64,000 nucleotides of DNA from Candidatus Saccharimonadia bacterium (GCA_041743505.1 JBGTMQ010000009.1:40012-104011), one strand, 5' to 3'. Shown: positions 795-18,177, numbered from the stretch's first letter. Notes: a model not told the origin generated them from the letters alone. Made by a program: numbers and translations.

Positions 795-1751
795 CTATTT
801 ATCAATCTCTCTTATTTTCCGGTGACTCAACCGCGAAATCTCGGCCATTACGGCGTCGCTAAATTCCTGGCGGTCAGCCGCCGTGGCATTATCAGACTGG
901 TAGGGCGGGTGGATCAGCCGGCCAAAGTGGATCTCGACACGGCACATCAGGCGCAACCACCCCTTCAGCGGCTTCACCTGTTCAGTGCCAATAAGCGCCA
1001 CCGGCAATACCGGTGTGCCAGTACGAAAAGCCATGTGAGCCATGCCATGCTTGGCCGGCAGCAAGTATTCATCCGGTGCGCAGCCACCTTCCGGAAACAC
1101 CCCCACCGCGCCATCTTGCTCCAGTACCAGCTCGCCGGCCTTAGCAGCCTCAACCGCCGCGTTGGATCCACGCGCCACCGGAATATGCCCCATCCAGCGA
1201 AGCAGGCGTCCAAAAACCGGAATCTTAAACAGCTCAGCCGCCGCCAAAAACGCCACGTCACGCCGCAGTGCGCCGAACACAAACAACGGATCACTAATCG
1301 ACTGATGGTTCGGACATATCAGCACCCGCCCGGAAGCCGGTACATTCTCGCGGCCGCTTACCGTTACACGAGTGAAAACCCGCATCCGTGCTCCCAGTGA
1401 AAGCCAAAGCCGGACAAAACCGACTACCAATCGCACACGCCGAAGTAGTGACCTTGCCTTCGGATTCTCCGCCTCCTTTGCAAGATGCTTCATTCGCCAG
1501 CTACGCAGCAGGATTCCAATACCGAGAAAAGCTAGCCAACCAAGCAGCTGGGCATAGACCAAAAGCGTATAAGAAGCTCCGGTCACTTGGTGTAAAAAAT
1601 CAGCCGTGAAATAAGCTGCCAGCATACACATGGCTACACTAAAGAGTAAAAGCAGCAATCGCGAAAATTGGGACTTTGGCAGGTCGCTAAAATGTAGTCC
1701 AAAAAAGACCACCCAAAATCCCACCGCAGCGCACAAGGTAGCTATCAACAT
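795..1751 (-). CDS. plsC: 1-acyl-sn-glycerol-3-phosphate acyltransferase (lysophospholipid acyltransferase) with N-terminal TM segments
   Basis: Acyltransferase HX4D motif (NHQSISD) and FPEGG motif in the 318 aa ORF; N-terminal hydrophobic helices. Confidence 0.8.
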   Translation of the reverse strand: MLIATLCAAVGFWVVFFGLHFSDLPKSQFSRLLLLLFSVAMCMLAAYFTADFLHQVTGASYTLLVYAQLLGWLAFLGIGILLRSWRMKHLAKEAENPKARSLLRRVRLVVGFVRLWLSLGARMRVFTRVTVSGRENVPASGRVLICPNHQSISDPLFVFGALRRDVAFLAAAELFKIPVFGRLLRWMGHIPVARGSNAAVEAAKAGELVLEQDGAVGVFPEGGCAPDEYLLPAKHGMAHMAFRTGTPVLPVALIGTEQVKPLKGWLRLMCRVEIHFGRLIHPPYQSDNATAADRQEFSDAVMAEISRLSHRKIREIDK

Positions 1752-1772: not shown

Positions 1773-1791
1773 TCACGAGACGGTCTCGTGA
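1773..1791. promoter_or_regulatory. perfect 9-bp-arm palindrome TCACGAGAC-G-GTCTCGTGA in the divergent plsC/exonuclease intergenic region (operator-like)
   Basis: Read directly: tcacgagacggtctcgtga, a self-complementary site between two divergently transcribed genes. Confidence 0.4.
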
Positions 1792-1844
1792 AGCACTACA
1801 TACTATACTATAAATCGACGCATATGTCTGTACCGAATCAATGC

Positions 1845-1873
1845 TTGCGTTCGCTTATTGTTCGGTTTATAAT
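1845..1873 (+). promoter_or_regulatory. sigma70-like promoter (TTGCGT-N17-TATAAT) ending 7 nt before ATG 1881 (leaderless-type)
   Basis: -35 TTGCGT 1845-1850, -10 TATAAT 1868-1873, ATG at 1881. Confidence 0.45.
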
Positions 1874-1880
1874 CTGCCGT

Positions 1881-3296
1881 ATGCAGGGTGCTACTCAATT
1901 ACCGCTCGTCTTCGTCGACATTGAAACCACCGGCAGTAGTTACATCTACGGCCGGGTACTTGAAGTCGCCGCCATCAGAGTAGAGAACAACCGCGTTGTC
2001 GATGAGTTCTCAACCTTGTTAAATCCCATCGGCTATGTCCCTGAGCCTATTACCCGCCTCACCGGTATCACCAGCCAGGACGTCCAGGGCCAGCCGCAGT
2101 TTGAAGAAATAGCCGGCCGGCTGGCAGCCATCATGAACGGAGCTACTTTTGTAGCCCACAACGTCCGTTTCGATTATTCCTTTATCAAGCGCGAATTTGC
2201 CCGTCTTGAGCAAGACTTTTCGCCAAAGTTGTTGTGCACTGTCCGTTTGTCGCGCAGTCTGTTCCCACAATACCGGCAGCACAATCTTCAGGCGCTCATT
2301 GAGCGTCACCAACTCCAAGTCTCAGCCCGACACCGCGCGTACGAGGACGCTCTAGCTTTATGGCAGTTTTACCAGCTCGTGTTGCACGAATTTGATCTCG
2401 ACACCATTGAAAGCGCACTCAACCTGCAATACAAGCGCCAAACCTTGCCGTCCCACCTGAACGAGTCCGACATCCAGCGCCTACCGGACACACCGGGCGT
2501 GTATATCCTCGAGAGTGACGAGCCTACTCCGCTATACATAGGCAAGAGCGTCAACATTCGCCAACGAGTATTATCACATTTCAATAATGACCTTCAAAAA
2601 ACCAGCGAGCTCCAGATCAGCCAGGCCGTCCGCAACATCACCACCATCAAAACCACCGGCGAATTAGGTGCCTTACTCCTCGAATCACGGCTCATCAAAG
2701 AACAGCAGCCACTGCACAATAAACGTCTTCGGAGCATTTCCGAGCTCACTGCCATAACTGAAACCACCAATGCTACCGGATATTTCAGCGCCTCACTCGA
2801 GCAAGGCGGAAATATAGATACCACACTCGGGCTCTACCGCACCATGGGTGTAGCCAAACGCGCCATCGTTGCTTTAGCCGATGAGTACCGGCTTTGCAAA
2901 AAACTTTTAGGCGTGGAAAAAACCCAAGGAGCCTGTTTTGGCCACCAGCTCCATAAATGCGCCGGCGCCTGCATCGGCCAGGAACCCGTGGGTTTATACA
3001 ACACCCGGTTTAACCAAGCCTTTCAAGCCTCCCGCATCCAGCAGTGGCCCTACGACGGCGCCATCCTAATAACCGAGCGGCATCCATTTGTACCGGGAGC
3101 TACAGCCTACCTCATTAATAATTGGAGCCTTGTCGCCCAGATCGACGAAGACGAAAGCGGGGAAGTAGTCATCCGGGAACTAAACCAAGAGTTTGACCTG
3201 GATGCCTACAAAATCGTTTCCAGCTACCTTCGTTCGCCGGTAGCCCGCCGCACCGTCAAGCAGGTAAACGAAGCCGACGTGCTAGCCTTTGCCTAA
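1881..3296 (+). CDS. DnaQ-like 3'-5' exonuclease (Pol III epsilon family) fused to a GIY-YIG nuclease domain
   Basis: N-terminal VFVDIETTG...HNVRFDYSFI (DEDDh exonuclease motifs) and central GVYILESDEPTPLYIGKSVNIRQRV (GIY-YIG). ORF track extends to 1788, but 1881 sits 7 nt after a TATAAT and clear of the divergent plsC start. Confidence 0.8.
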   Translation: MQGATQLPLVFVDIETTGSSYIYGRVLEVAAIRVENNRVVDEFSTLLNPIGYVPEPITRLTGITSQDVQGQPQFEEIAGRLAAIMNGATFVAHNVRFDYSFIKREFARLEQDFSPKLLCTVRLSRSLFPQYRQHNLQALIERHQLQVSARHRAYEDALALWQFYQLVLHEFDLDTIESALNLQYKRQTLPSHLNESDIQRLPDTPGVYILESDEPTPLYIGKSVNIRQRVLSHFNNDLQKTSELQISQAVRNITTIKTTGELGALLLESRLIKEQQPLHNKRLRSISELTAITETTNATGYFSASLEQGGNIDTTLGLYRTMGVAKRAIVALADEYRLCKKLLGVEKTQGACFGHQLHKCAGACIGQEPVGLYNTRFNQAFQASRIQQWPYDGAILITERHPFVPGATAYLINNWSLVAQIDEDESGEVVIRELNQEFDLDAYKIVSSYLRSPVARRTVKQVNEADVLAFA

Positions 3297-3321
3297 AAAA
3301 AGAGCCCCGCAAGCGGGGCTC
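3295..3321. terminator. rho-independent terminator hairpin (AGCCCCGC-AA-GCGGGGCT) flanked by an A6 run; serves convergent genes, T-run on minus strand
   Basis: 8-bp GC stem 3303-3310/3313-3320 with aaaaaa at 3295-3300 (U-tract for the minus-strand gene 3422..3718). Confidence 0.6.
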
Positions 3322-3421
3322 CATCGAGCACTCTCTTGCGGAGCGGGCTGTATCAGCCAAGGGGAACATGAACGTAGTCGGCCCCGTTATCCCGGCGACA
3401 CAGTCGCCTCATCAACATAGA

Positions 3422-3718
3422 TTACTCCTTGCTCTCAAGCGCAGTCGAATTCCGGCGCTGCTTCCCGGCACGAACAGACCAACAAGCCCAAACAACTCCT
3501 CCAACCACCCAGAGTAGACCGCCGATGAGGAGAGCGTAGGACAAGCCGTCGTAGGAAATACCGGTCACGAGATGGACTCCGTAAGCGGTAAAGCAGGCGG
3601 CAGCGGTATAGGCTAGCACCATGAGCACAGGGTTACCTGCAGAAGTACTCAGATTCCGGAAGCAACAGAAGAAAGCTACCCAAAAGGCAGCCGCAAGAGC
3701 CAACATCACTACCCACAT
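3422..3718 (-). CDS. small membrane protein (98 aa, 3 predicted TM helices), hypothetical
   Basis: Hydrophobic ORF MWVVMLALAAAFWVAFF...; no recognisable family. Confidence 0.45.
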   Translation of the reverse strand: MWVVMLALAAAFWVAFFCCFRNLSTSAGNPVLMVLAYTAAACFTAYGVHLVTGISYDGLSYALLIGGLLWVVGGVVWACWSVRAGKQRRNSTALESKE

Positions 3719-3897
3719 GTTAATCCCCTTGAGGTCACTCCAAAGGACAATCCCATGAAGATACTTATATTATACTATAGATACATGAAATTGTCCAGTA
3801 TGCACTATGCGTCGCTACAATTCGCTCCAAAGAAAAAGGCCCGGAGGCCGGCCAGCGCATAACACGCCAACCGGTCCCCGGGACCAAGTGTCTCGCA

Positions 3898-5514
3898 CTA
3901 CTTGTCCTCAGGACGCTTCGTCCAGATCTCCACGACGTTGCAGTGTCGGCGCGACAGCCTTACCCGAACGCCCCCATACGCTCCCTGAAGATTCTCGGAC
4001 AGGGTCTTGGGTGGGCTATCGGACTGGCCAGACCAGCCACCGCGCCTAATCGAACCGACAGCGGTACCTGGGTAACCGCGCTGCGGCAGCCAAGTGCGCC
4101 AGGCAATGCGCGACACATCTAGACGCATCTGGAGACCAGGCAGCACTTGCTGCCAGTTTTCGCCGAGTTCGAATTCGAGTGGCTGGACTGACCAGCCATC
4201 TTCATCGTACTTGGGCGATTCGGCCATCTGCACCGTCACCTCATTTTCCGTACCCCAACCTAGCCCCAAATTCCGGTCCGCGAAAGACACGCGAACTGCC
4301 GGAGTCAGGTCCTGGGTGGTACCGCTCTGGAAGTAGCCCAGTACGACCCAACCATGATCATCGGTGAATTGCTCCACCACATAGCGGTAGGAATCCTGAT
4401 AGTCATACCGGACCCTGAGCTTATCGCCCAAATAGGTCATGGTATCAGCCATCGCCAGGGTAGTAGGCGGACTCCAGTTGGCCGGCTCCTCAACCGGTTC
4501 GAATGTTCCGGTCTGAATCCAATAAGTCCCTTGCGAAGACATCATGAGGCGCATGGTTGGGGTAATGGAGACCCAATCCTGGATCACCTCGGGGATATCC
4601 CATGTGCTGCCACCAGGAGCCGTAACCCGAAGGCCGTAAATGTCACGGCTAGAACTACGGTACCCATCGCCACGAATGAACCGAAACGAGTACCCCTCTG
4701 ACAGGTTCTTGCGTTCCACCCAGAAGGCATCCTTCATCTCACCCCAGATGGGCTCGCATTCCAGCAGCAGCTGATAACTGGTAGCTTGACGGAATTCGAT
4801 CTTCCGTGGGTAGTCAGCTCCAACCCAAAACCGGGCCTGCAAACCAGGAGCAATTGTCCGCCAAGTACGGGTCGCGCGGAAGTACTTCGAGGTACTCCAC
4901 TCCAACTCTGGGAACAAGCGCGTTGCGCGCTGCACCAGAATGCCACTGTTATGGGGCGATCCCCGGTACCGGACAGCCCCACCCAGATACATCCAGTCGT
5001 CGCCCATCTTATCTTCCTTGCTCCAAGGCTCAGACCAGATGTGCTCCGGCTCGGGAGCATGAAGCGGCTGGCGCTTGGAAACAGTCAGCAGACGGTCACC
5101 TTCTTCAACAGACGTAGCCACCTGAATCCGCAGCTCCCGGGTAACCCGTCGCCACTGATCAGTACCTTCAAACTGCTCCACGGAGGACCACAAGCAGTCG
5201 TCATTGTGAGCATGCGACCGCTCGCAATCACGGCGAGTACGGACCTCAACACCACCGGGAATTACCCGCACCTCCATGTCACAGCCGGCGATACCGTCCA
5301 GAGGACGCCACGCCGGACCGGCGTACAGGCGGAACGGTACACCCCAGGGGGTCAAGTCATCCTGGAGTTGATGCAGCACACCAACCCATTGGGCAGCCAG
5401 GTCAGGATCTAGTCCAACTCTGACGAGATCGTCAGCGGTCAGGCCGGCGGTTGCCATCGTGGTATCAAACTGGTTTCCCTGGCCAATGGTGGCCAAATGC
5501 AGTCGCCTGGTCAT
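3898..5514 (-). CDS. hypothetical protein, 538 aa, Trp/Arg-rich, no recognisable domain (orphan)
   Basis: Long uninterrupted ORF. Composition is unusual (many W, R, G; predicted beta-rich), no catalytic motifs recognised. Lone minus-strand gene with an AT-rich upstream region. Confidence 0.55.
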   Translation of the reverse strand: MTRRLHLATIGQGNQFDTTMATAGLTADDLVRVGLDPDLAAQWVGVLHQLQDDLTPWGVPFRLYAGPAWRPLDGIAGCDMEVRVIPGGVEVRTRRDCERSHAHNDDCLWSSVEQFEGTDQWRRVTRELRIQVATSVEEGDRLLTVSKRQPLHAPEPEHIWSEPWSKEDKMGDDWMYLGGAVRYRGSPHNSGILVQRATRLFPELEWSTSKYFRATRTWRTIAPGLQARFWVGADYPRKIEFRQATSYQLLLECEPIWGEMKDAFWVERKNLSEGYSFRFIRGDGYRSSSRDIYGLRVTAPGGSTWDIPEVIQDWVSITPTMRLMMSSQGTYWIQTGTFEPVEEPANWSPPTTLAMADTMTYLGDKLRVRYDYQDSYRYVVEQFTDDHGWVVLGYFQSGTTQDLTPAVRVSFADRNLGLGWGTENEVTVQMAESPKYDEDGWSVQPLEFELGENWQQVLPGLQMRLDVSRIAWRTWLPQRGYPGTAVGSIRRGGWSGQSDSPPKTLSENLQGAYGGVRVRLSRRHCNVVEIWTKRPEDK

Positions 5515-5563
5515 AGTGACTGGGCTCCCTTCAAACTTCCGTCGACTAGCCGGTTGGCTGGTC

Positions 5564-5617
5564 TTTGAGAACGGCTCGCTAGGACCAAGCTATTAGACCC
5601 AGTAAGCCGTTCTCAAA
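5564..5617. other. long hairpin (13-bp stem TTTGAGAACGGCT / AGCCGTTCTCAAA, 28-nt loop) upstream of the 538-aa orphan gene
   Basis: Exact 13-nt inverted repeat read in sequence; not followed by a U-tract on either strand, so unlikely to be a simple terminator. Confidence 0.4.
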
Positions 5618-5705
5618 ATTAGACAAGTAGTAGATTGTCAAAAGACATGCCCTATATGTTAGCATAAACGCCGCAAAAAGTCAATATTTCACCCGTGATT
5701 AAAAA

Positions 5706-5734
5706 TTGACACGATAGCAAGATAGTAGTATTAT
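5706..5734 (+). promoter_or_regulatory. sigma70-like promoter TTGACA-N17-TATTAT
   Basis: Consensus -35 at 5706-5711, -10 TATTAT 5729-5734, 17-nt spacer; ~55 nt upstream of small ORF 5791. Confidence 0.5.
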
Positions 5735-5790
5735 ATGCAGCGACCAACCCATGATCTAGCCTTCAGTTAGAACCGATCAAAGGATGCGCT

Positions 5791-5967
5791 ATGAGTGATG
5801 ACATTGTGCCGGCCGACAACGAAGGGCCCCCTCCCCACAAACTCACTCGGGGTGAGGCCGCTGCTTTACTAGCAAAACTCTTCATGGAGAATGCCGACGC
5901 CGACAACAACGCCGCCAACAGCGATCTAATTGCGGAACTTCGTAAGCGCCAAAGAGACGAGTCGTAA
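5791..5967 (+). CDS. small hypothetical protein (58 aa, acidic/low-complexity)
   Basis: ATG preceded by AAGGA (7-nt spacer) downstream of the consensus promoter; MSDDIVPADNEGPPPHKLTRGEAAALLAKLF... Below the 60-aa ORF-track cutoff and overlaps a probably spurious minus ORF (5763..6212). Confidence 0.3.
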   Translation: MSDDIVPADNEGPPPHKLTRGEAAALLAKLFMENADADNNAANSDLIAELRKRQRDES

Positions 5968-6113
5968 ACCCCATCAACCTGCCACTCTGGCACCCAACCT
6001 CCGCTCATGACGGCTATCACTAACCGTCGTGGGCGACTTTTTATCAAAACCAAACGACAACCCGCGTGCAGTACAATAGAATCGGCCGCATATCCGCAGA
6101 GATTGGGAGCATC

Positions 6114-6239
6114 ATGACCCAATACGAACTGAGCCGGGACGGCTCCAAAAGCTACCGGCGCCTGACCATCGAGCAGGGTATCGACGATATCCGCCCACTG
6201 ATCGAACTTCAACGCCAGCTACGCAAGATCTGCAAATAG
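6114..6239 (+). CDS. small hypothetical ORF (41 aa), stop overlaps the GTG of the next ORF (TAGTG)
   Basis: GGGAG RBS 5 nt upstream of ATG; MTQYELSRDGSKSYRRLTIEQGIDDIRPLIELQRQLRKICK; possibly the 5' piece of a frameshifted gene continued in 6239..6601. Confidence 0.2.
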   Translation: MTQYELSRDGSKSYRRLTIEQGIDDIRPLIELQRQLRKICK

Positions 6240-6601
6240 TGCTAGCCACCGGAGAAACAGCCATTACCGGCGACGTCACTATTTCGGGAACCCAGCTGGC
6301 GCTCTTTGGCTCAGCAAATCGCCCGGTCATTGTCGTGAAGCTATCTAGAGACATCGACTGGCTAAAACACCGGCAGCCGGTTATGGATGCGCTCACCCAG
6401 TTCCTGCTAACTTGCGGCATCAAACAGCCCCGGAAGTTCATGCGCACCAGCCCAAATCTCCGCTTCGGAACCGAAGAAGCCTATATGCCACACCTAACCC
6501 TCGGCACAGCACCCCGCGATACACCAATCGCAGCCGTCAAGTTTACATCCATCCCGATCATCCTCGGCCCAACCACCATCCGGGGCGCAATCCGGCAATA
6601 A
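6239..6601 (+). CDS. hypothetical protein (120 aa); C-terminal H-L-T-L-G motif, possible remnant of a 2H (LigT-like) phosphoesterase
   Basis: GTG-start ORF. HLTLGTAPRD resembles the second HxT/Sx motif of 2H phosphoesterases but a clean first motif is missing (DVTIS at the expected place). Confidence 0.3.
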   Translation: MLATGETAITGDVTISGTQLALFGSANRPVIVVKLSRDIDWLKHRQPVMDALTQFLLTCGIKQPRKFMRTSPNLRFGTEEAYMPHLTLGTAPRDTPIAAVKFTSIPIILGPTTIRGAIRQ

Positions 6602-6629
6602 CCCAACTCGACACGAACAACCCCATGAG

Positions 6630-6663
6630 CCTCTAGTACGCATTTATTACTGCGTACTAGAGG
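6630..6663 (+). other. perfect 13-bp inverted repeat (CCTCTAGTACGCA-tttattac-TGCGTACTAGAGG) between the LigT-like ORF and the pnkp-like gene; terminator or operator
   Basis: Exact hairpin read in sequence, followed by cttt and then a TACAAT -10 (6672-6677) ahead of ATG 6696. Confidence 0.45.
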
Positions 6664-6695
6664 CTTTAAGCTACAATCCAAATCCAGCGATCTGA

Positions 6696-8930
6696 ATGCC
6701 TCGTGGTAAAATTACCCTCACTATGAGAAAACTCTTACTTCTTCGCGGCCTGCCGGGCAGCGGCAAGAGCACTTTTTTGCGGGAAAGCGGTCTGGAGCCC
6801 TATACTCTTTCGGCCGATGGCTTGCGCATGTTCTACAGCGGCCCGGTCATGGAAGCAAATGGCCGTATGCGCATTGCCGCCGACCAGGACCGCACGGTAT
6901 GGCAACAATTACTGCAACTACTCGAAGACCGGATGCGGCGAGGAGAACTGGTAATAGTTGACGCAACCCACACCCATCCCCGGTCATTCCAGAACTATCA
7001 GCAAATTGCCAACCGGTATCGCTACCGGGTTATATGCGTCGATTTCGCCGACATGTCATTTGAGACTTGCGAAAAACGAAATATAAACCGCGAAGAGCAT
7101 AAGGTCGTACCACCGCACGAAATGAAGCGGCTAAATGATAATTTGCTACGTTCACGCTTGCCAAAGTGGATTACCCGGGTTTTACCAGAGGACCTTTTGC
7201 CAACATTGCAAATGGGACCACAAGATATCTCTCACTATAAAGCGGTTCATCACATTGGAGACATCCAAGGCTGCTATACGCCGCTCATGGACTACTTCAA
7301 GAAATACGGCCTCCAGGACGATGAACTCTATATCTTTGTCGGAGATTACCTGGACCGCGGCCCCCAAAACGCCGAGGTCATGACATGGCTATTGGAGAAT
7401 TACCATCGGCGCAATTTCATCTTTCTGGAAGGTAACCATGAGGCCCACCTCCGCGCCTGGGCTGGAGGCGGTAAGCCTCGTAGCCGTCAATTCACCGAAG
7501 CAACCCAGGTCGAACTTGAAGCTGCCGGCTTTTCAACTAAAAAAGTCCATGGCTTTCTCTACCAATTACGCGAAGCCTACTTCTATAACTTCCATGACCA
7601 CATCGTACTGGTAACTCATGGTGGTCTGGCTACGCTTCCCAAAAATCTGACGCTCGTTAGCTCGGCTCAACTTATTAAAGGTGCAGGTGTTTATGAAGAC
7701 GCTGACGCATGCGATACCACATTTGCCGCTACCGCCCCGGCCAATGCCTATCAAATCCATGGCCACCGTAACCGTTACGCCAGTCCCGCTCGGGTCAACG
7801 CCCACTGCTTCAACCTGGAAGGCAAGGTCGAATTTGGTGGCGAACTCCGCACTGTCACGCTAACCCCACAAGGCTTTAAAGAGCGTAGCGTAAAAAGCCT
7901 AATAGATGCTAGTAAAACAATTCTTGAGCCCATCGGCGATTTCTCCGGTGAAATCGAAAATGTCCAAATGCTCGTAGCCGACTTACGCGCCACCCCCGAA
8001 ATCTTGGAGAAACCCCAAACCGGCACCAACATTAGCTCTTTCAACTTTTCCCGCGACGTCTTTTACAAAAAAGCCTGGGACGAGCTCAATGTGCACGCCC
8101 GCGGCCTGTTTATAAATACCGCCCAAAACATAATCGTAGCCCGGTCGTACGAAAAATTCTTTAACCTTGGTGAGCGGCCCGAAACCCAACCCGACGTCCT
8201 AGGCCGTTCCCTAGCCTTTCCGGCTCACGCCTGGATTAAAGAAAATGGTTACTTGGGACTAGTCGGCTATAACCCCGAAACCAAAGAACTGGTGTTTGCG
8301 AGCAAAAGTTCGCTGACTAGCAATTTTGCTGGATGGCTACACCAGCAGTTTGACCAGCTAGCTCCAGCCGGGTCCAAAAACCGCAAAGAGATAACAGAGT
8401 ATCTAAGCCGCAACGACGGTAAGACATTGGTCTTTGAGGCCATCGAACCTCTCAATGACCCACACATTATCGAACACGATGGTCCTCCCTACCTGGTATT
8501 ACTGGACATTGTCAGCAATACCACCCGCTTTGAAGCCGAAAACGATAAAGAACGCCAGAAGATTGCTAAACTTCTTAACTGCCCGGCCAAACGCCAAGCC
8601 GCAATTCTCAAAAACACGGCCGGACTGGAGACTTGGCTGGAAACTGTGCGCGACATCAGTTACAAGCACAACGATCAATACATCGAGGGCTTTGTTCTCG
8701 AAGACGCACACGGCTTCAAAGTAAAGGTCAAACTGCCTTGGTATGCCTTTTGGAGACAAATGCGCACCCAGCTTGAGCGGCTGCAGTCAGGCAAGAAAAC
8801 ACAGCTGCCCACACCCGCAATCGATAATTCCCTGGCAGAGAAATTTCTGGCCTTTCTGGGAGATAAAACAACCACCGAGTTAAAAGCCACCAACATTATC
8901 GACTTGCGCCGGGAATTCTTTAACCAATAG
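6696..8930 (+). CDS. polynucleotide kinase-phosphatase with C-terminal RNA-ligase-like nucleotidyltransferase domain (bacterial Pnkp-type RNA repair enzyme)
   Basis: Three modules in Pnkp order. P-loop kinase (LLLRGLPGSGKSTF, VIVDATH). Calcineurin-type metallophosphatase (GDIQGC, GDYLDRGP, GNHE, GHRN). Ligase motifs: I K-E-N-G-Y (WIKENGYLG, ~residue 512), IV EGFVLE, V FKVKVK. Confidence 0.8.
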   Translation: MPRGKITLTMRKLLLLRGLPGSGKSTFLRESGLEPYTLSADGLRMFYSGPVMEANGRMRIAADQDRTVWQQLLQLLEDRMRRGELVIVDATHTHPRSFQNYQQIANRYRYRVICVDFADMSFETCEKRNINREEHKVVPPHEMKRLNDNLLRSRLPKWITRVLPEDLLPTLQMGPQDISHYKAVHHIGDIQGCYTPLMDYFKKYGLQDDELYIFVGDYLDRGPQNAEVMTWLLENYHRRNFIFLEGNHEAHLRAWAGGGKPRSRQFTEATQVELEAAGFSTKKVHGFLYQLREAYFYNFHDHIVLVTHGGLATLPKNLTLVSSAQLIKGAGVYEDADACDTTFAATAPANAYQIHGHRNRYASPARVNAHCFNLEGKVEFGGELRTVTLTPQGFKERSVKSLIDASKTILEPIGDFSGEIENVQMLVADLRATPEILEKPQTGTNISSFNFSRDVFYKKAWDELNVHARGLFINTAQNIIVARSYEKFFNLGERPETQPDVLGRSLAFPAHAWIKENGYLGLVGYNPETKELVFASKSSLTSNFAGWLHQQFDQLAPAGSKNRKEITEYLSRNDGKTLVFEAIEPLNDPHIIEHDGPPYLVLLDIVSNTTRFEAENDKERQKIAKLLNCPAKRQAAILKNTAGLETWLETVRDISYKHNDQYIEGFVLEDAHGFKVKVKLPWYAFWRQMRTQLERLQSGKKTQLPTPAIDNSLAEKFLAFLGDKTTTELKATNIIDLRREFFNQ

Positions 8931-9087
8931 AGCCCTGAGTGGCCCGCCGTCCCTACTTAGAGAGACTGTATCTCCACCACTCAAATTTCAGACTTCTGTC
9001 GTCGTGTGTTTGCATTTAGAAACAAATTATGTTAAAATAACATTAAGCAACGGCCGCCTGACTCTCAGATAGAAGGAGCCCGCTACC

Positions 9088-9357
9088 ATGCTAGTACTTG
9101 CCATGCTGTCGGCTATGCCGCTAAACTTCGTTGAATCGCCAGTGCGAACCATTGTCATAAGCTTGATTTGGTTCGCCATCTTTGGCAGCACCGCCGTATA
9201 TCTTGACTACGATATGCGTAGAAAGTACGGCGGTTACAAAACCACAACTGAATCAGTCCTCTGCTGGAGTATTGTCGGCGGGCTTGGGCTAGTCGCTCTT
9301 GCCGGCCTCGTCAACGCCTTTTGGCCCATCATTCTAACCGCCTACACGGCTAGTTGA
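9088..9357 (+). CDS. small membrane protein (89 aa, 2-3 TM), hypothetical
   Basis: AAGGAG RBS upstream; hydrophobic ORF MLVLAMLSAMPLNFVESPVRTIVISLIWFAIFG... Confidence 0.5.
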   Translation: MLVLAMLSAMPLNFVESPVRTIVISLIWFAIFGSTAVYLDYDMRRKYGGYKTTTESVLCWSIVGGLGLVALAGLVNAFWPIILTAYTAS

Positions 9358-9391
9358 CCAAACCCAGCCTCAAACATATGTGAGCACACAA

Positions 9392-9429
9392 GGGCCCAAA
9401 CGCAGGCTGCGTTTGGGCCCTCATTTTTT
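9392..9429 (+). terminator. rho-independent terminator (12-bp stem GGGCCCAAACGC / GCGTTTGGGCCC, loop AGGCT, then TCATTTTTT)
   Basis: Perfect stem read in sequence followed by a T6 run. Confidence 0.75.
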
Positions 9430-9456
9430 ATACCTCTATTCTGGTATTATGCCTTT

Positions 9457-10473
9457 ATGGATGACAAGCACGACCGCTATCAACCCGCCAAAGCTGCCGA
9501 AGGTCTAGGTATCGGGGCTGAGCGTTACGCCCACGAACTAGGCACGGCAGACAACGACATCGCAGACGCAGAAAGCGCCACGCCGGGCTCAAAACCCACC
9601 GAAAGCGCATCCGTGGCTACTGCCCGAGCCGCAGTTGAAGCAGCTACAGGCCCAACCGAGCCCGAAGCTGCACCCAATGATCAAATCCATACCTTCATCG
9701 ATGAATTAAACGCCCGGGCCGAGGACGCCCGAAGCGACGTCCATACCCGTAGTAGCGATTTGCAACTTATTGACGTCATTGAAAATACATTTTCGCCGCT
9801 CAAACGCACCCGTCTACGTAAATACTGGCAAGAGCACCAAACCGCCGACGCCATACACATCAAGCCCCCTGGCGAGTTGGATAACAACCCAGACGCCCTA
9901 GAGGGTTACATCCGGGAGGTAGCCAAAAAAGGTAACCCCTGGGCCGTTCGGCGGGAACAAATGCTCCTGAGAAACAAAATAGAACACCCCAGTGGCAAGC
10001 AGTACCGCGAAAAAATGCTGGCAGAGACACACCAGTTAGGAATACTTGCCGCAGCCGCCGGTGAAGCCGCCGTCGATCACTTCCGGCGCCTCCAATCGGG
10101 CGAGCCTCTCCCCGAAAACCCCGCTGCTCGCCAATTTGTAATTGATCTGCATCTCGAAACAGAGCATTCAGGCGCTAGTACTAATGATGCCAGGGGCAAA
10201 CGAGTGGAGGAGACAGCGGGGAACCGCTACGACGCGCTGTACGGATACCCACCGGCCGTAGAAGAACTGGTACGATACCAACTCATGGACGCCGGACCAG
10301 CCGCAAGCGAGTGGCACAATGCCGCCCGCGAGGCCGACCAATCCAAAGATAAGTTCTTTAAACCCGGTAAATTCGCAGCCTTAAAGCGGCGTATCCACGA
10401 GGCCCGTGAAGCCACCGCCTCGGCCGCCACAAAAAGCATCGGCCGTTTACGCACTCTTCAAATCGCCACTTAA
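9457..10473 (+). CDS. hypothetical protein (338 aa, acidic, no TM, disordered N-terminus)
   Basis: ORF begins 6 nt after a TATTAT -10 (9445-9450), a leaderless arrangement; no recognisable domain. Confidence 0.55.
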   Translation: MDDKHDRYQPAKAAEGLGIGAERYAHELGTADNDIADAESATPGSKPTESASVATARAAVEAATGPTEPEAAPNDQIHTFIDELNARAEDARSDVHTRSSDLQLIDVIENTFSPLKRTRLRKYWQEHQTADAIHIKPPGELDNNPDALEGYIREVAKKGNPWAVRREQMLLRNKIEHPSGKQYREKMLAETHQLGILAAAAGEAAVDHFRRLQSGEPLPENPAARQFVIDLHLETEHSGASTNDARGKRVEETAGNRYDALYGYPPAVEELVRYQLMDAGPAASEWHNAAREADQSKDKFFKPGKFAALKRRIHEAREATASAATKSIGRLRTLQIAT

Positions 10474-10474
10474 G

Positions 10475-10503
10475 TTGACCGATAAGCACAAGAGTGTTAT
10501 AAT
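10475..10503 (+). promoter_or_regulatory. consensus sigma70 promoter TTGACC-N17-(TGT)TATAAT immediately after the stop of the preceding gene
   Basis: -35 10475-10480, -10 10498-10503 with an extended-10 TG; expected TSS ~10510. Confidence 0.55.
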
Positions 10504-10596
10504 CATTGACATGGTTCAGTTATCAAACTACAGCCTCATCAACGAGACAGCGACAGCTACGTTCTAGCCTGTCGGTAGTTTGCGATTTCCAAAAGT

Positions 10597-10619
10597 ACTC
10601 CCGGCAGCGGGAGTTTTTG
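10597..10619 (+). terminator. intrinsic terminator inside the 5' leader of the ThrRS-like gene (ACTCCCG-GCAG-CGGGAGT + TTTTTGTTT); attenuator or 3' end of a ~110-nt sRNA
   Basis: 7-bp GC-rich stem plus U-tract ~90 nt downstream of the predicted TSS and ~70 nt upstream of ATG 10687. An upstream alternative hairpin (CGACAG...CTGTCG, ~10554-10578) is also present. Confidence 0.55.
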
Positions 10620-10686
10620 TTTCTCGACCCAAAACTCCATGTAGAACGGCACTCAGAGGCTAACCTACTAAAATGGAGCTTTTGTA

Positions 10687-12027
10687 ATGAAAGACAGTTA
10701 TTTTGTAATCAAAAAAGACGGCCAAATCGTCGAAGCTGCACCCTATCTTAAGGATGGCGGCGACTCGGATAATTTCAAATTATTCGTCCAACGCGAGGCC
10801 CTAAACCAAAACGTTAACCGCGGTTCCGAGGGCAAGCCCAAGTACCTGGGAGTTGCCAAAAAATTCGGCTTCAATTGGGAGCCAAATGCCGACGTCGGTA
10901 TTCTTCAGTATGACTACAAAGCCAACCTCATGAGCCGGCTCGTGCAGGACTATGCCCGTTCATTGGCGGGCAGGGTAGGGCTGCCGGTATATGAGGTTAA
11001 CGGGTCAAACATATTTAATATGGACCACCCGGTGGTGGAAGCCTACGCCAAACTCTACGGCGACAGATTGTACCAGTTCAAAGCTGGCAACAGCCAAGTC
11101 GTGATGAGCTACGACGCCAGCTACCCTCAGTTCAATCTAGCCGCTAGTCACTCACTAAGCCACAAGAATATACCATTCGCGCATTTCTCTATCTCAGACT
11201 GCTACCGCTATGAACAAAGCGGCGAATGCATGTTGCTCTACCGCCAGCGCCGGTTCTACATGCCTGATATTCATCCTTACTTCAAGGATGTGGCTGAAGC
11301 ATTCGAATGGTACCCCAGGCTGCAAGAGCAGATTCTGGCCGCCTCACAGGAGCTAAAGCGTGACTACGAGATGGTCATCGAGGTCTCGTCCCCTAAGCAT
11401 TGGGAGCAGTTTCAAGCAGAAATAAAAAAAGTCGCCGCCAACTTTGGCCGTGATGTCCTGGTTGGCGTCCACAACGACCAGGCCGACCGCTACTGGATCG
11501 TGAACGTCGATTACAAAATCATCGACGCCCTCGGACAATCCCGGGAGATCGCCTGTATCCAAATCGACGTCGGTAATGCACCTCGCCTCGGCATCAGCTA
11601 CATCAACGAAGCAGGCAACAGCCGGCACCCCGTTATCATCCATTCAGCTATCCCAGGTGGCATTGAACGCTATCTGTATATGGCGCTGGACGGATTCGAT
11701 AACGGCCTTCCGCTCTGGCTTTACCCAGTCCAAATCCGCCTCGTCCCGGTCAGCGACCAACACGTCAGTCTCTGCCAAAAGCTCGTTGCTGACAACGCCC
11801 ACCAACCAGTCCGTATCGAAATCGACGACCGAAATGAAAGTGTCGGCAAAAAAGTCAAACAAGCCCACGAAGACCTGGTCCCATTAGTAGTCGTGATAGG
11901 GGAGAAGGAGCAAGCAAATGGCGCCATAGAGCTGGATAAAGCTATCGCCCAAATCCTAGGCTCCTCGCTCAACCGCCCATTCATCCCGCGCCAGTGGCCA
12001 GAGCTAGTGAGCCGGCAAATACATTGA
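10687..12027 (+). CDS. threonyl-tRNA synthetase-like protein: class II catalytic core + anticodon-binding domain, lacking the N-terminal TGS and editing domains
   Basis: Matches ThrRS, including the zinc ligands: CYRYEQSGE ~ CHRNEPSG; RQRRFYMPDIHPYF ~ RVRGFTQDDAHIF (motif 2); HPVIIHSAIPGGIERY ~ PVMIHRAILGSMERF (motif 3); LPLWLYPVQIRLVPV ~ FPTWLAPVQVVIM (anticodon-binding domain). Only 446 aa against ~640 for canonical ThrRS. Confidence 0.75.
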   Translation: MKDSYFVIKKDGQIVEAAPYLKDGGDSDNFKLFVQREALNQNVNRGSEGKPKYLGVAKKFGFNWEPNADVGILQYDYKANLMSRLVQDYARSLAGRVGLPVYEVNGSNIFNMDHPVVEAYAKLYGDRLYQFKAGNSQVVMSYDASYPQFNLAASHSLSHKNIPFAHFSISDCYRYEQSGECMLLYRQRRFYMPDIHPYFKDVAEAFEWYPRLQEQILAASQELKRDYEMVIEVSSPKHWEQFQAEIKKVAANFGRDVLVGVHNDQADRYWIVNVDYKIIDALGQSREIACIQIDVGNAPRLGISYINEAGNSRHPVIIHSAIPGGIERYLYMALDGFDNGLPLWLYPVQIRLVPVSDQHVSLCQKLVADNAHQPVRIEIDDRNESVGKKVKQAHEDLVPLVVVIGEKEQANGAIELDKAIAQILGSSLNRPFIPRQWPELVSRQIH

Positions 12028-12087
12028 TCCAGCTTATTTGTAGTACAATACCTGCTATCTTTCTTCCGACTACAGAGAGAGGCACCT

Positions 12088-13092
12088 ATGGACACACGCG
12101 AGTTCGTCAAGGCCTATCCCGATAGCCTCAAGCCCGGGCAGATACATAGCGGTCCGCACTCCGCGCTAATTCATGACGCACAGGAGTGGTCGTATCGTTT
12201 TGGACTGCTCTTGCACATGCTGTTATCTAGCCAGGCCAATGACGCACCCAGCATGCCCACTGACGACTTTGACGATTACATGGGCTGGGCTAAGCACAAT
12301 GTTAGTGACCAAGAAATAGACTTGATCACTCAGCCAGACGGGCTGAGAGCTCGTAATGAAATTAATTTTCATACCATGAACCGGTGCATGGTAAACCTAT
12401 GGACGCCGCTCTTCTCGCGACTGTGGTCTTCCGACAAAGAGCGGCTCAGTCAGCTAGCCTACAGCCAACGTACGCTAGCCTTCATGGGTACGGTTTACTA
12501 TGTGAGCCGGCAGGATTACACGAAACACCACGGAGATCACGCACTCTTTGAACCGGCATTCAAAGAGATACTCGGTACCATGAATGGCTTCATGCAGGAA
12601 TACGATGCCGCCATCATCCTGCTCGACATCATCCGGCGTCACCCAAGTCTCACGCTAGTGCCGGCGCCATTGCAATTTGAGCGCACCATCAAGCGCACCA
12701 ATGTCGACTTCATTGTGACCGACGTAGTGTCACAGCAAGCGGTGGGGATCCAGGTTAAGACCAACGTCCGCCAGTCGGACATTAACATAGCCGACAGCGA
12801 CCGCGTCGTGCTTATAGATGGCAATGTCGATTTGCAAAATGTTAAAGCCGTCCGCACCCGACGCAGACAGTCCGACCAGCGGGTCGTGCCCTGGCCCGGC
12901 TTGATCGCCGCTCATTATATCCAGTCACTTCGGGCCAAAGGTAGCGGCCCTGAGCGCATGTCTACGCACGAACTCCAAAGCCAACTCCGCCTTAAGATGC
13001 ACGTCCAGCCACACATCGGCGGCATCAGAGTTGACCGTCGGGAAATCGCCAAGTCCATTGGCGAGCGCATACTGGCAAAACTCTACACCTGA
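12088..13092 (+). CDS. hypothetical protein (334 aa)
   Basis: Good RBS (GAGAGAGG) upstream; no confident domain. A weak D...(Q)VK pattern (VDFIVTDVVSQQAVGIQVK) could hint at a PD-(D/E)xK-like fold but is not established. Confidence 0.55.
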   Translation: MDTREFVKAYPDSLKPGQIHSGPHSALIHDAQEWSYRFGLLLHMLLSSQANDAPSMPTDDFDDYMGWAKHNVSDQEIDLITQPDGLRARNEINFHTMNRCMVNLWTPLFSRLWSSDKERLSQLAYSQRTLAFMGTVYYVSRQDYTKHHGDHALFEPAFKEILGTMNGFMQEYDAAIILLDIIRRHPSLTLVPAPLQFERTIKRTNVDFIVTDVVSQQAVGIQVKTNVRQSDINIADSDRVVLIDGNVDLQNVKAVRTRRRQSDQRVVPWPGLIAAHYIQSLRAKGSGPERMSTHELQSQLRLKMHVQPHIGGIRVDRREIAKSIGERILAKLYT

Positions 13093-13135
13093 CGTCCCGA
13101 CATCCGTTGTCCCGCTAGCCGCTTAATCTCCTCAA

Positions 13136-13172
13136 GCCCCCGGTGAGCATCCAATATGCATCCACCGGGGGC
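13136..13172. terminator. convergent-gene terminator hairpin (10-bp stem GCCCCCGGTG / CACCGGGGGC with 17-nt loop containing ATGCAT)
   Basis: Perfect GC-rich stem between the + gene ending 13092 and the - gene ending 13198; weak U-tracts. Confidence 0.45.
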
Positions 13173-13197
13173 TCCTTATATAGCCAGACACTTACTT

Positions 13198-14058
13198 TTA
13201 CCGGCTATTAACAATATAAGCAAAGTTTGCTTTCAAGTAGGCAATGGCTTTCTCAAATGCCCGGGCCTCCTGAAGCGCTTGGTCCTTGTCCTTATCAAAC
13301 CATGTTATATGCTCTGCCTGTTCGGCTATACGGCGAAACACGCCTCTCCAAGCTAACTGGTCAATATCAGGGATTTCTTCAAAAACTTTTAGGTCTTCGT
13401 GCTGTGCATCTTCCCAAGTTATCGCGTCCACAAGCATAATTCCTTCGGCAAACCCGCTGGGAGCCCAGGCAGGCGAAAAATCAATAACAGCTACTGGTAA
13501 GCCATCTGCAACCAAAAGATTACCAGATAAATCCCCGTGGATTAACTGGCTAGGCGCATCATATGGCTTGAGGTAAGGTGTGATCTGGCTTATTAGTTCG
13601 GCAAACTCTGGGCCATAATCAAACTCACGTTTTTGCCACACTACTAAATCAGCCGCCAACCACGAGCTTGATGCAGAACCAACAAACAATGGCTTAGGCG
13701 CATTACTGAGTAGGCTATGGAATGCCCTGCTAGCCTTCAATTTATCCCCGTACTGACCCTTTATATGATCTCCAGATAAGAACGACCAGGCTACATAGCC
13801 GTCATGTATCCATGAACCTCGAACAGATTTGATCGGTCGCGCAAAACGGACGTCAGCCGACTCGGGTAAGCTGTCAAAAAGCTCAGCGGCCCAAGCACCT
13901 CCGTCATCGCCTTCTGCGGGCTTAAGCACAATTTCGCCGGCACGATACGTAGTACCTTGTCCGCCTGCGAGACGTACCGGCTCAACCGAAGATCCAAAAG
14001 CTTCGGCCGTAGCAATAGTCGGCGGTGTTGCATTAACACCATAAAAATCTAACTTCAT
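13198..14058 (-). CDS. aminoglycoside/macrolide phosphotransferase (APH)-fold kinase family protein
   Basis: Catalytic-loop motif LIHGDLSGNLLV (HGDxxxxN) and VIDFSPA (DFG-equivalent) typical of the APH/choline-kinase fold; substrate unknown. Confidence 0.7.
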   Translation of the reverse strand: MKLDFYGVNATPPTIATAEAFGSSVEPVRLAGGQGTTYRAGEIVLKPAEGDDGGAWAAELFDSLPESADVRFARPIKSVRGSWIHDGYVAWSFLSGDHIKGQYGDKLKASRAFHSLLSNAPKPLFVGSASSSWLAADLVVWQKREFDYGPEFAELISQITPYLKPYDAPSQLIHGDLSGNLLVADGLPVAVIDFSPAWAPSGFAEGIMLVDAITWEDAQHEDLKVFEEIPDIDQLAWRGVFRRIAEQAEHITWFDKDKDQALQEARAFEKAIAYLKANFAYIVNSR

Positions 14059-14071
14059 ACAAATAATACCT

Positions 14072-14146
14072 TGGTAGTCCCAAGGGGATTCGAACCCCTG
14101 TTACCGACGTGAGAGGCCAGCGTCCTAACCGCTAGACGATGGGACC
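14072..14146 (-). tRNA. tRNA-Glu (anticodon CUC), CCA encoded
   Basis: Reverse complement GGTCCCATCGTCTAGCGGTTAGGACGCTGGCCTCTCACGTCGGTAACAGGGGTTCGAATCCCCTTGGGACTACCA folds as a cloverleaf: 7-bp acceptor stem, GG in the D-loop, anticodon loop CTCTCAC (CTC), T-loop TTCGAAT. Confidence 0.85.
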
Positions 14147-14261
14147 ACAACTTTAGTAAGGTACCATATTTGAGGGGAACTGTCCAGACAACCGAGCTGG
14201 CCAGATATCCGGTGGGTTGCGGTCCGGGACGGTTTCCACCATAATCTTAAACGTAAGCATC

Positions 14262-16082
14262 ATGGTGGAACAACAAAGAAATCTCATATTGTTAGCGCGG
14301 GCGCAGGCGGCTATAGGCGGCTTGATCGCCATGACTGTTTTTGCCATCTACGGAGTCCAGCCAAGCCTGCTGGATAACGCCAGTACATGGATTGGGCCGG
14401 CCATTTTGGGCGCCATCGGTGTTATTTACTATTTGACCTTTCATCAGGTGATAGGACGGCGGCGGCCGGCTTTATCGGCCCTGATCCTAACCGTTATTAC
14501 CGTACTAAACTTTATCCTTGTCATCGCTTCGACCGGCGGGCTCGACTCGCCGTATTATGCTCTCTGGCTGCTAGCCATTGTAGCCGCCGGCATTTTTGGT
14601 ACAGTCGAAACTGTCGTGCTACTCAGCGCCACGATTCTGTATTTTGCCTACGAGATTGTACGCGAAGGGATGCACGCCCCGTTTATTCAAGATCACCTGA
14701 TACTGCTGGTTATCACCTTACTAGCAGCCGGACTAGCCGAATGGATTCATACCCGCAACCGCCACGTAGCAGCCCAGAGCAACAAGCTCCAAACCTTGTC
14801 CGGCAAACTAACCGAAGAACAGCTGAAAGCTCAAGCCTTAATGTCGAGCATCGGCGAGGGCGTGCTGGTAGTGGACGAATCCGGTCACATCAAGCTATTC
14901 AACAAGGCCGCCCAGCAATTAACCGGCTGGGATGAAAGCAGTGCCGAGAATATTGATTACAATCTGGTGCTCCAGCTTCACATGGCCGACGACGGGGAAG
15001 TCGATAAAAGCAACGATCCGTTTGAGCAAGTCTGGGCCAAGAAAGCTCCGGTCGTCCGTGACGATCTGGTAGTGCTAACCCGCTCCGGCCGCAAGATTCA
15101 AGTTAATTTGTCAGTTTCACCCATCACCGATAATGACGGCGAGCTGACCGGCGCTATTGGCTTATTCCGCGACATTAGCCGCGAAAAAGCCGTGGAGCGG
15201 CAAAAGGACGAGTTCGTCAGCACAGCCAGCCACGAAATGCGCACACCGGTAGCGGCTATAGAGGGCTACATTTCATTGGCCATGAACGCCAATGTAGCGA
15301 CCATTGATGACCGGGCCAAGAAATATCTCGACAAGGCCCACGAAACCATCCAGCACCTCGGTGAGCTATTCCGTGACTTGTTGAGCGTCGCCAAAGCCGA
15401 GGAAGGCCAATTAAACGCCAAAATCGAATCGGTAAATATGGGCGAGCTGCTCCGCAGCACCGTGGATGACATGCAGTTTGCCGCCCAAAAGAAGGGCCTC
15501 ACGCTCATCTTGCAGACCTCGGAATCAGGCGGCAAGACTATTACGCCCTTGTATTACGTTGCTGCTAGCCCCGAGCGCCTGCGTGAAGTCCTCATGAACC
15601 TCATTGATAATGCCATCAAATACACGGCCCAGGGCGGCATCAAAGTCACCCTCAAAGGCGACGACAAAGAGGTGAGGGTAGCAGTAAACGATACGGGCGT
15701 AGGCATCGCCGCCGAAGACATTCCGCATTTGTTCCAAAAATTCTACCGCATCGATAACTCGGCCACTCGGACCATCGGCGGCACCGGCCTGGGCTTGTAC
15801 CTGTGTCGGCAAATGATTGAGCTGTTCAACGGCCGAATCTGGATCGAGTCCAAATTCAACCAGGGCTCCACCTTTAATGTCAGCCTACCACGACTAAGCG
15901 AAGAGGAGGCCAAGCGATTACAAGCCAATGCCGGCATGCCTACCAGCCAGACAACCACTGCCATTCCGGGCGGCGTAGTCCAGCCAGGAGCCTCCGCCGG
16001 CCCGGCAATTACCCAACCCATCCCTATGCCAGTTCCGGCCGAACAAGAAGACCAAACTTCACATCGGATTCTGATTCGATAA
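14262..16082 (+). CDS. membrane-bound sensor histidine kinase (multi-TM N-terminus, PAS, HisKA, HATPase_c, Pro/Gln-rich C-terminal tail)
   Basis: STASHEMRTPVAAIEGY (H-box), NLIDNAIKYT (N-box), DTGVGI and GTGLGL (G-boxes); 5-6 N-terminal hydrophobic helices. The longer frame begins at TTG 14217; ATG 14262 chosen. Confidence 0.8.
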   Translation: MVEQQRNLILLARAQAAIGGLIAMTVFAIYGVQPSLLDNASTWIGPAILGAIGVIYYLTFHQVIGRRRPALSALILTVITVLNFILVIASTGGLDSPYYALWLLAIVAAGIFGTVETVVLLSATILYFAYEIVREGMHAPFIQDHLILLVITLLAAGLAEWIHTRNRHVAAQSNKLQTLSGKLTEEQLKAQALMSSIGEGVLVVDESGHIKLFNKAAQQLTGWDESSAENIDYNLVLQLHMADDGEVDKSNDPFEQVWAKKAPVVRDDLVVLTRSGRKIQVNLSVSPITDNDGELTGAIGLFRDISREKAVERQKDEFVSTASHEMRTPVAAIEGYISLAMNANVATIDDRAKKYLDKAHETIQHLGELFRDLLSVAKAEEGQLNAKIESVNMGELLRSTVDDMQFAAQKKGLTLILQTSESGGKTITPLYYVAASPERLREVLMNLIDNAIKYTAQGGIKVTLKGDDKEVRVAVNDTGVGIAAEDIPHLFQKFYRIDNSATRTIGGTGLGLYLCRQMIELFNGRIWIESKFNQGSTFNVSLPRLSEEEAKRLQANAGMPTSQTTTAIPGGVVQPGASAGPAITQPIPMPVPAEQEDQTSHRILIR

Positions 16083-16125
16083 TATATTGCTAAGCATAAC
16101 TTAAACGTATACACTAACATTACAT

Positions 16126-16494: not shown

Positions 16495-16518
16495 ATTTCG
16501 TTAATCTTGGCAAAATAG

Positions 16519-18175: not shown

Positions 18176-18177
18176 AC

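Follow-up and report, generated by a model that had tools for sequence, protein, structure and literature searches.

Is the run of genes that ends at a tRNA-Glu(CUC) gene in the chromosome of a Candidatus Saccharimonadia bacterium an accessory island integrated at that tRNA, or is it ordinary chromosomal DNA that merely looks unusual? We addressed this question in a stretch of 64,000 nt (GCA_041743505.1, JBGTMQ010000009.1:40012-104011; hereafter the window), in which positions 3297-14146 (hereafter the block) had been proposed, on a sequence-only reading, to be a tRNA-bounded accessory island enriched in orphan and non-housekeeping genes and set in a surrounding of universally conserved ones. 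All the genes then listed for the block were found, among them a 538-aa W/R-rich protein, a fused RNA-repair enzyme, the threonyl-tRNA synthetase (ThrRS) gene thrS, orf334 and a gene for an APH-fold protein, the last of which adjoins the tRNA. Our results make it likely that the block, part of a Saccharimonadia-like genome of the candidate phyla radiation (CPR), is a mosaic of ordinary chromosomal DNA and not one element integrated at tRNA-Glu. The island interpretation fails for an 11-kb block bounded by the tRNA, and survives in the reduced form of a variable slot of ~2 kb on the tRNA side.

Island hallmarks, composition and codon usage

Classical tRNA islands arise when an integrase inserts them at the 3' terminus of a tRNA gene, and a partial direct repeat of that gene bounds them. 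The position of the block is in keeping with this: the 3' end of tRNA-Glu(CUC), a minus-strand gene, does face the block from position 14072, and the nearest gene start lies directly at it, at a distance of 13 nt. No tRNA-Glu segment of at least 13 nt, on the other hand, has a second copy on either strand of the 64 kb, and searches with the 16- and 25-nt 3' termini of the tRNA, allowing up to three mismatches, returned only the tRNA itself from the window, so that the repeat predicted for the distal boundary is absent from it. The sole 12-nt match corresponds to the tRNA 5' end, falls inside the Pnkp-like open reading frame (ORF) and is at chance level. No other pair of repeats was found to bracket the block, and none of its ORFs matched an integrase, recombinase, transposase or defence family in Pfam, PHROGs, NCBIfam or PADLOC.

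Composition likewise fails to set the block apart. Its G+C content (0.50-0.58) is the same as that of the rest of the window and GC skew runs smoothly across it, while its tetranucleotide distances stay between -1.2 and +1.4 standard deviations, the largest outlier of the window being found at 18-22 kb, in what had been regarded as core. At third codon positions, the G+C content (GC3) of the block genes is 0.56-0.66, with the exception of the APH-fold gene, compared with a window median of 0.62. Neither GC3 (Mann-Whitney p = 0.51) nor codon usage, expressed per gene as a z-score from a leave-one-out likelihood test (Mann-Whitney p = 0.12), distinguishes the block from the rest, and the comparison with core genes that had been proposed as a check therefore revealed no difference. 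Codon z-scores range from -2.0 to +0.8 in the plus-strand genes of the block and are -2.9, -4.5 and -8.7 in its three minus-strand genes. A foreign origin of the 538-aa and APH-fold genes was considered on the strength of these values and dropped, since all minus-strand genes in the window deviate (-1.3 to -8.2 outside the block); we attribute the deviation to a window-wide strand asymmetry and not to foreign origin. An asymmetry of this kind can pass for a foreign signal in codon usage. The genes at 795-1751, 21752-23671, 32401-33615 and 51858-53006 are among the minus-strand genes whose synonymous codon usage deviates strongly from that of the plus-strand majority; in parallel, along the plus strand GC skew is negative throughout and AT skew is positive.

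The contrast in gene content is also less pronounced than had been supposed. Among ORFs of at least 150 aa, three of six in the block lack a Pfam family, as compared with 11 of 41 outside (Fisher p = 0.34), which leaves the claimed enrichment in orphans weak. In CPR genomes, a cluster of family-less genes beside a tRNA is weak evidence for an island, because about a quarter of the larger ORFs are without a Pfam family window-wide and gene order decays quickly. The description of the remaining window as dense in housekeeping genes holds in part: ScpAB, Der, Pth, DprA, Dus, a Clp-type AAA+ ATPase, TopA and PBP1 are encoded there, together with a release factor, FtsEX, CTP synthase, XseA and RecO, but so are many family-less ORFs and a DNA methylase. 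Amid these housekeeping genes, a 382-aa protein at 51858-53006 on the minus strand, a further non-housekeeping product encoded outside the block, has weak N6_N4 DNA-methylase and UPF0020 matches.

thrS, tRNA-Glu(CUC) and the slot between them

Central to the interpretation of the block is thrS, which had been taken for a truncated, ThrRS-like paralog. Its 446-aa product carries PF00587 and PF03129, i.e. the class II core and the anticodon-binding domain, and more than 1,400 homologues scored at E <= 1e-30. Among the 120 homologues listed, many of them on contigs of 0.5-1.2 Mb, all are 443-470 aa in length apart from one 365-aa fragment, and they come mainly from metagenome-assembled genomes of Candidatus Saccharibacteria/Saccharimonadia and other Patescibacteria. 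A length of ~445 aa is thus standard in Saccharibacteria and no oddity. The best NCBIfam matches are ThrRS models, with 378 bits against a cutoff of 484, a shortfall explained by the absence of N-terminal domains; in the best of these, the archaeal-type PRK03991, positions 153-568 are matched and only the N-terminal domain is missing. The top PDB matches are ThrRSs too. Their catalytic core in solved structures aligns with the protein, which in the alignments shown retains the Cys, His and His residues at the zinc-ligand positions. That nearly all the listed homologues have the same short form argues that the gene encodes the housekeeping ThrRS, which would then presumably be the sole ThrRS of the organism, of whose genome the analysis covered 64 kb.

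The split catalytic ThrRS of crenarchaea is one example of a minimal enzyme without an editing domain. Another is the yeast mitochondrial ThrRS, which is minimal and from which the editing domain is absent (PMC4267643). The 446-aa protein resembles both in being composed of the catalytic core and anticodon-binding domain only, but differs in that here the form is found throughout a bacterial lineage, the Saccharibacteria.

Scans of genome and metagenome contigs with the ThrRS yielded nothing above 59% identity, thrS being the sole gene in common, and closer relatives were reached by a protein search followed by look-up of their contigs. In one of them, L018 (GCA_038245115.1; ThrRS 71% identical), thrS is followed after 109 nt by a minus-strand tRNA-Glu(CUC) and then by the genes for a histidine kinase (HK), a response regulator (RR), ScpA, ScpB, RluB, Dac, Der, Pth and DprA. 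In another, L015 (GCA_028288925.1; ThrRS 75% identical), an 871-aa gene stands between thrS and the tRNA, again on the minus strand, and the order HK-RR-ScpA-ScpB-RluB-Dac-Der is preserved to the end of the locus. Backbone proteins of these two relatives are 53-93% identical to those of the window at the amino acid level, and the ThrRS, at 71-75%, is inside this range. Because gene order is kept and its identity is on a par with that of its neighbours in both relatives, thrS is placed in the conserved backbone; tRNA-Glu lies inside the same backbone, and therefore no border between core and island exists at the tRNA. Sequences identical to those of the block were encountered only in two Logan assemblies, in which gene order was unchanged. 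The neighbourhoods of thrS are entirely different in L013, L016, L020 and L021, whose ThrRSs are 70-77% identical.

What does vary is the interval from the thrS stop to the tRNA 3' end. In L018 it is only 109 nt long and empty of cargo. In L015 it extends to 3449 nt and encodes an 871-aa N6_Mtase/Eco57I protein resembling type IIG restriction-modification (R-M) enzymes, and in the window, with a length of 2044 nt, it holds orf334 plus the APH-fold gene. Variation among relatives was demonstrated for no other part of the block. The comparison with related genomes speaks against an island as far as the syntenic thrS is concerned and reveals presence/absence variation between conserved flanks at 12028-14071. 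In L015, the R-M gene (4426-7041) is followed by ~575 bp of broken ORF fragments (7042-7617), which have no family match and adjoin the tRNA 3' end. By eye, these fragments gave the impression of a serine-recombinase remnant, which was dropped as there was no Pfam match at E <= 1.

In the slot of the window, the start of orf334 is 60 nt past the thrS stop, and the two are probably co-transcribed. The APH-fold gene, which had been described as convergent on the tRNA, is instead on the same strand and co-directional, with its ATG at 14058, 13 nt 3' of the tRNA-Glu end, and is probably read through from the tRNA gene. Its putative Shine-Dalgarno sequence, AAGG, overlaps the terminal CCA of the tRNA, and there is no room for a promoter of its own. 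The APH fold of the product agrees with its score of 26.4 bits with Pfam APH against a cutoff of 23.2. With TIGR02569 it reached 89 bits against a cutoff of 136.75, and homologues annotated as TIGR02569, at 34-38% identity, reside on actinobacterial and Deinococcus replicons; by sequence, the protein resembles this uncharacterised family. For orf334, no family was found in Pfam, PHROGs, NCBIfam or PADLOC and nothing significant among PDB sequences; tblastn against phage and plasmid collections gave no match, and the single-sequence model, with a predicted local distance difference test (pLDDT) score of 34, was unusable.

A similar small difference occurs away from the tRNA. Pth and DprA are adjacent in L018, and the window has two extra genes there, at 21752-23671. 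We regard this as a second small lineage-specific insertion, located in the presumed core, which indicates that small indels are not peculiar to the tRNA site. The two genes, both on the minus strand, encode a 240-aa protein without a family and a UPF0020/RMKL-like methyltransferase.

Repeats of the tRNA 3' end in relatives

Copies of the tRNA 3' end do occur in related genomes. In L018, the last 19 nt of tRNA-Glu(CUC), TGGTAGTCCCAAGGGGATT, recur exactly and in direct orientation 2.8 kb away (968-986 and 3810-3828), and L019 independently carries the 19-nt tRNA-Glu 3'-end repeat TGGTAGTCCCAAGGGGATT at 857-875 and 3699-3717. Another relative, L003, has a 61-nt direct repeat (17806-17866 and 18017-18077; 60/61 identical, copy starts 211 nt apart) made up of the last 19 nt of tRNA-Glu(CUC) and the downstream terminator hairpin, with a 15-nt inverted partial copy in between; its appearance is that of a scar left by integration or of a miniature element. 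A viral match of the 19-nt core was discarded as irrelevant, being only to a phage tRNA-Glu(UUC) on a T4-like contig. In addition, thrS is followed by a convergent tRNA in four of five independent contexts in the clade, and the identity of the tRNA varies: tRNA-His after 83 nt, tRNA-Glu(UUC) after 778 nt, tRNA-Ala after 814 nt and tRNA-Glu(CUC) after 109-3449 nt (L013, L016, L020, L015, L018 and the window), L021 alone being without one. Assuming a tRNA density of ~1 per 20 kb, we estimate that such pairing would arise by chance with a probability of ~2e-6 to 3e-4; by this estimate it is non-random.

These data bear on the possibility that repeated integration at the tRNA-Glu(CUC) 3' end assembled the entire block, together with thrS, into an old composite island, with the newest arrivals nearest the tRNA, the integrase and att repeats lost and the composition adapted to the host. 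The exact 19-nt repeat in L018 and L019 encloses a Gp49/HTH pair together with thrS, the L003 repeat duplicates the tRNA 3' end along with its terminator, the insertions between tRNA and thrS in L015 and in the window are what tandem accretion predicts, and the convergent tRNAs of varying identity in four of five contexts point in the same direction. However, repeat, recombinase and compositional deviation are all lacking in the window itself; the short thrS occurs across the Saccharibacteria, and its divergence keeps pace with that of its backbone neighbours; no integrase was found in the L018 interval between the 19-nt copies, nor any integrase family in the thrS-tRNA intervals of the relatives; and a 19-nt repeat seen in one relative is no direct evidence on the genome studied here. 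On balance, we consider serial integration of the block unlikely. A clade-wide version of the same idea holds that tRNA 3' flanks are serial insertion sites along which thrS travels, and that the block is a decayed, host-adapted island bearing the only ThrRS of the cell. This we regard as a long shot of low probability; its support consists of the repeats in relatives and the thrS-tRNA pairing, none of it coming from the window itself.

At the scale of the ~2-kb slot, then, the proposal that the tRNA flank serves as an insertion site is consistent with the varying slot and with the repeats in L018 and L003; at the scale of the 11-kb block it is not borne out. The locus shares with classical tRNA islands the variable material adjoining the tRNA 3' end, a single slot with different cargo in each relative, including an R-M gene in L015, and tRNA-Glu(CUC) 3'-end direct repeats in two relatives. 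It departs from them in that the window has no direct repeat, integrase or compositional signature, and in that the demonstrably variable part spans ~2 kb and not 11 kb, the block moreover containing a backbone gene, thrS. The occurrence of att-like repeats and variable cargo at tRNA-Glu(CUC) 3' flanks in several Saccharibacteria may provide a lead to poorly known integrative elements.

According to the mosaic interpretation that we favour, thrS, tRNA-Glu(CUC) and the series HK-RR-ScpA-ScpB-RluB-Dac-Der-Pth represent the inherited backbone, an order seen directly in the relatives, and one or two accessory genes would come and go in the slot between thrS and the tRNA, the variation being observed and its mechanism conjectural. 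Turnover of the slot could have proceeded by old site-specific integration followed by decay, or by illegitimate recombination at the tRNA flank; we put it down to one of these because the window retains neither a recombinase nor an att scar. The remainder, 3422-10473, whose composition is native, would be lineage-specific content in a clade where gene order decays fast.

The left part of the block and the RNA-repair enzyme

The most conspicuous gene of the left part is the one that had been described as a Pnkp-like cassette. Its 744-aa product contains the Pfam domains AAA_33, Metallophos and RNA_lig_T4_1 (PF09511), so that a kinase, a metallophosphatase and a ligase are indeed present, but with the equivalog model TIGR04075 it scores 67.1 bits, the cutoff being 750, and the match is confined to residues 6-313. 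Its match to phrog_8238 (E = 1.2e-196) pairs residues 10-741 with profile positions 1-729 of 737 and takes in the three domains in unchanged order. At least 80% of the protein is covered in 112 phage records, and SPbeta-like, Staphylococcus and Alicyclobacillus phages have full-length homologues that are 34-40% identical. Judged by its domain families, the enzyme is assigned to a phage-type RNA end-healing and sealing family with an Rnl1-type ligase and is not a canonical bacterial Pnkp; it is predicted to phosphorylate 5'-OH ends, remove 2',3'-cyclic or 3'-phosphates and seal RNA. With the Pnkp-Hen1 system of the Clostridium thermocellum type (TIGR04075) it has in common an N-terminal P-loop polynucleotide kinase, a central calcineurin-type phosphoesterase and a C-terminal ATP-dependent ligase in one polypeptide. 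In contrast to that system, only the kinase-phosphatase half is recognised by the model (67 vs. 750 bits), the ligase belongs to the T4 Rnl1 type, a phage group, phrog_8238, gives the best full-length family match, and no Hen1 methyltransferase gene adjoins it, the neighbours (120, 89 and 338 aa) having no family match. The closest homologues are ~22 cluster representatives, including one with the label Saccharimonadales, that share 58-70% identity with the enzyme, after which identity drops to <=51%. They are solitary genes at varied chromosomal sites, e.g. with PK/PGK/TIM or Mur ligase, and no homologues of other block genes were found near them. We found no literature specific to this lineage.

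The 538-aa protein is W/R-rich as described (4.6% W, 9.1% R) and has no family match. Its AlphaFold2 model is all-beta after a helical N-terminus (pLDDT 76.7), and structure comparison with this model gave no meaningful fold match (template modelling score ~0.1). The 338-aa and 334-aa proteins are likewise without a family match, as had been stated; orf338 in particular has no detectable relatives in any library searched, and the four unassigned proteins of the block returned nothing significant against PDB sequences. Both small membrane proteins were confirmed as hydrophobic products. One of them, mem98, has no family match in Pfam, PHROGs or NCBIfam and is 36% identical over its full length to residues 1-99 of a PlsC-like acyltransferase (795-1751, minus strand; E = 7e-9) that is encoded outside the block, 1.7 kb away. 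The shared part is the N-terminal membrane domain, and from this alignment mem98 looks like a detached or duplicated copy of the PlsC-like membrane anchor.

An alternative for this part of the block is that ~3422-10473 was acquired separately and without relation to the tRNA, as a phage-derived piece or a defence/counter-defence cassette centred on the RNA-repair enzyme and the 538-aa protein. The full-length phage family match of the enzyme would fit such an origin, as would the scarcity of homologues of the 538-aa protein (12, all distant), the lack of family matches among the neighbouring genes and the absence of the region from the visible parts of the syntenic relatives. Set against this are a native composition and codon usage and the lack of phage structural, integrase or PADLOC defence matches. 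No match was obtained when viral contigs were scanned with the Pnkp-like enzyme, the APH-fold protein and the 334-aa, 338-aa and 538-aa proteins, tblastn on phages was null for the 538-aa and 334-aa proteins, and the latter was also unmatched in the plasmid collection. Moreover, the closest homologues of the enzyme occur in housekeeping contexts and mem98 is paralogous to a flanking native gene. Taken together, we hold a separate acquisition to be rather unlikely, and the data, which are indirect, lean toward a native origin of the left 7 kb.

Several observations weigh against reading the block as ordinary chromosomal DNA. The APH-fold gene has a GC3 of 0.42, the minimum of the window. The repeat in L018 lies beyond thrS and encloses the Gp49/HTH toxin-antitoxin pair as well as thrS, which our interpretation leaves unaccounted for. 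The full-length phrog_8238 match and the phage homologues at 34-40% identity count here too, and the 538-aa protein is nearly an orphan, with 12 homologues at 29-40% identity among 1.84 billion representatives. The L015 and L018 contigs end 2.4-2.8 kb 5' of thrS, which is compatible with a strain-variable region. Finally, the nearest ThrRS in the collections searched is ~75-82% identical, and all block proteins are singletons at 90% identity in a collection of 15 billion proteins. With singletons in the block and distant relatives, strain-level comparison of the left 7 kb is precluded. The DNA visible 5' of thrS is unlike the window: L018 has toxin-antitoxin pairs there, and L015 has RibD_C, HD and hydrolase genes. 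On the other side, the nearest homologues of the Cho-like gene, at 61-65% identity, have neighbours unrelated to those in the window, and since gene order is scrambled at the available distances, presence or absence at the left junction cannot be compared.

For annotation, these findings entail three corrections, namely that the ThrRS is the normal enzyme of its lineage, that the tRNA marks no border between core and island, and that 'Pnkp' belongs to a phage-type trifunctional RNA-repair family. Beyond that, the pattern is ordinary for a CPR genome and suggests ordinary genome flux, with little importance past annotation.

The features of the block and its flanks are collected in Table 1. The terminator reported near 3300 corresponds to a hairpin with a T-run, which is an ordinary bidirectional terminator, and the hairpin at 9391-9421 is probably a terminator as well, splitting the plus-strand gene string. 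The widest intergenic gap in the block is 276 bp.

Table 1. Coordinates of the features discussed, counted from the first nucleotide of the window
Feature	Position	Strand	Remark
Cho-like gene	1788-3296	+	left flank; convergent with 98-aa gene
G+C-rich hairpin with T-run	3301-3322		between convergent Cho-like and 98-aa genes; proposed left boundary
mem98, 98-aa membrane protein	3422-3718	-	hydrophobic
538-aa W/R-rich protein	3898-5514	-	
Divergent promoter region and small ORFs	5515-6601	+	lead into plus-strand gene string
Promoter candidate, TTGACA-17-TATTAT	5706-5734		promoter scan
Small ORF, 58 aa	5791-5967	+	
Small ORF, 41 aa	6114-6239	+	
Small ORF, 120 aa	6239-6601	+	
744-aa kinase/metallophosphatase/RNA-ligase fusion	6696-8930	+	
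89-aa membrane protein	9088-9357	+	hydrophobic
Perfect hairpin followed by T-run	9391-9421		15-nt arms; 3' of 89-aa gene
orf338, 338-aa charged protein	9457-10473	+	
thrS, 446-aa ThrRS	10687-12027	+	
Variable slot, thrS stop to tRNA 3' end	12028-14071		2044 nt
orf334, 334-aa protein	12088-13092	+	
APH-fold gene, 286 aa	13198-14058	-	TIGR02569-like
tRNA-Glu(CUC)	14072-14146	-	CCA encoded; 3' end at 14072 faces block; sole tRNA gene in window
Right-hand backbone	14217-21657	+	PAS histidine kinase, response regulator, 104-aa ORF, ScpA, ScpB, RluB-like, D-Ala-D-Ala carboxypeptidase, Der, Pth

The calls for the small ORFs (5791-6601) were taken from the identical Logan contigs, and none of the three products has a family in Pfam, PHROGs, NCBIfam or PADLOC. 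A second perfect palindromic hairpin with 15-nt arms lies at 6628-6665, 30 nt 5' of the start of the RNA-repair gene. The 120-aa ORF (6239-6601, plus strand) contains a single H-L-T-L-G motif reminiscent of the HxT of 2H phosphoesterases.

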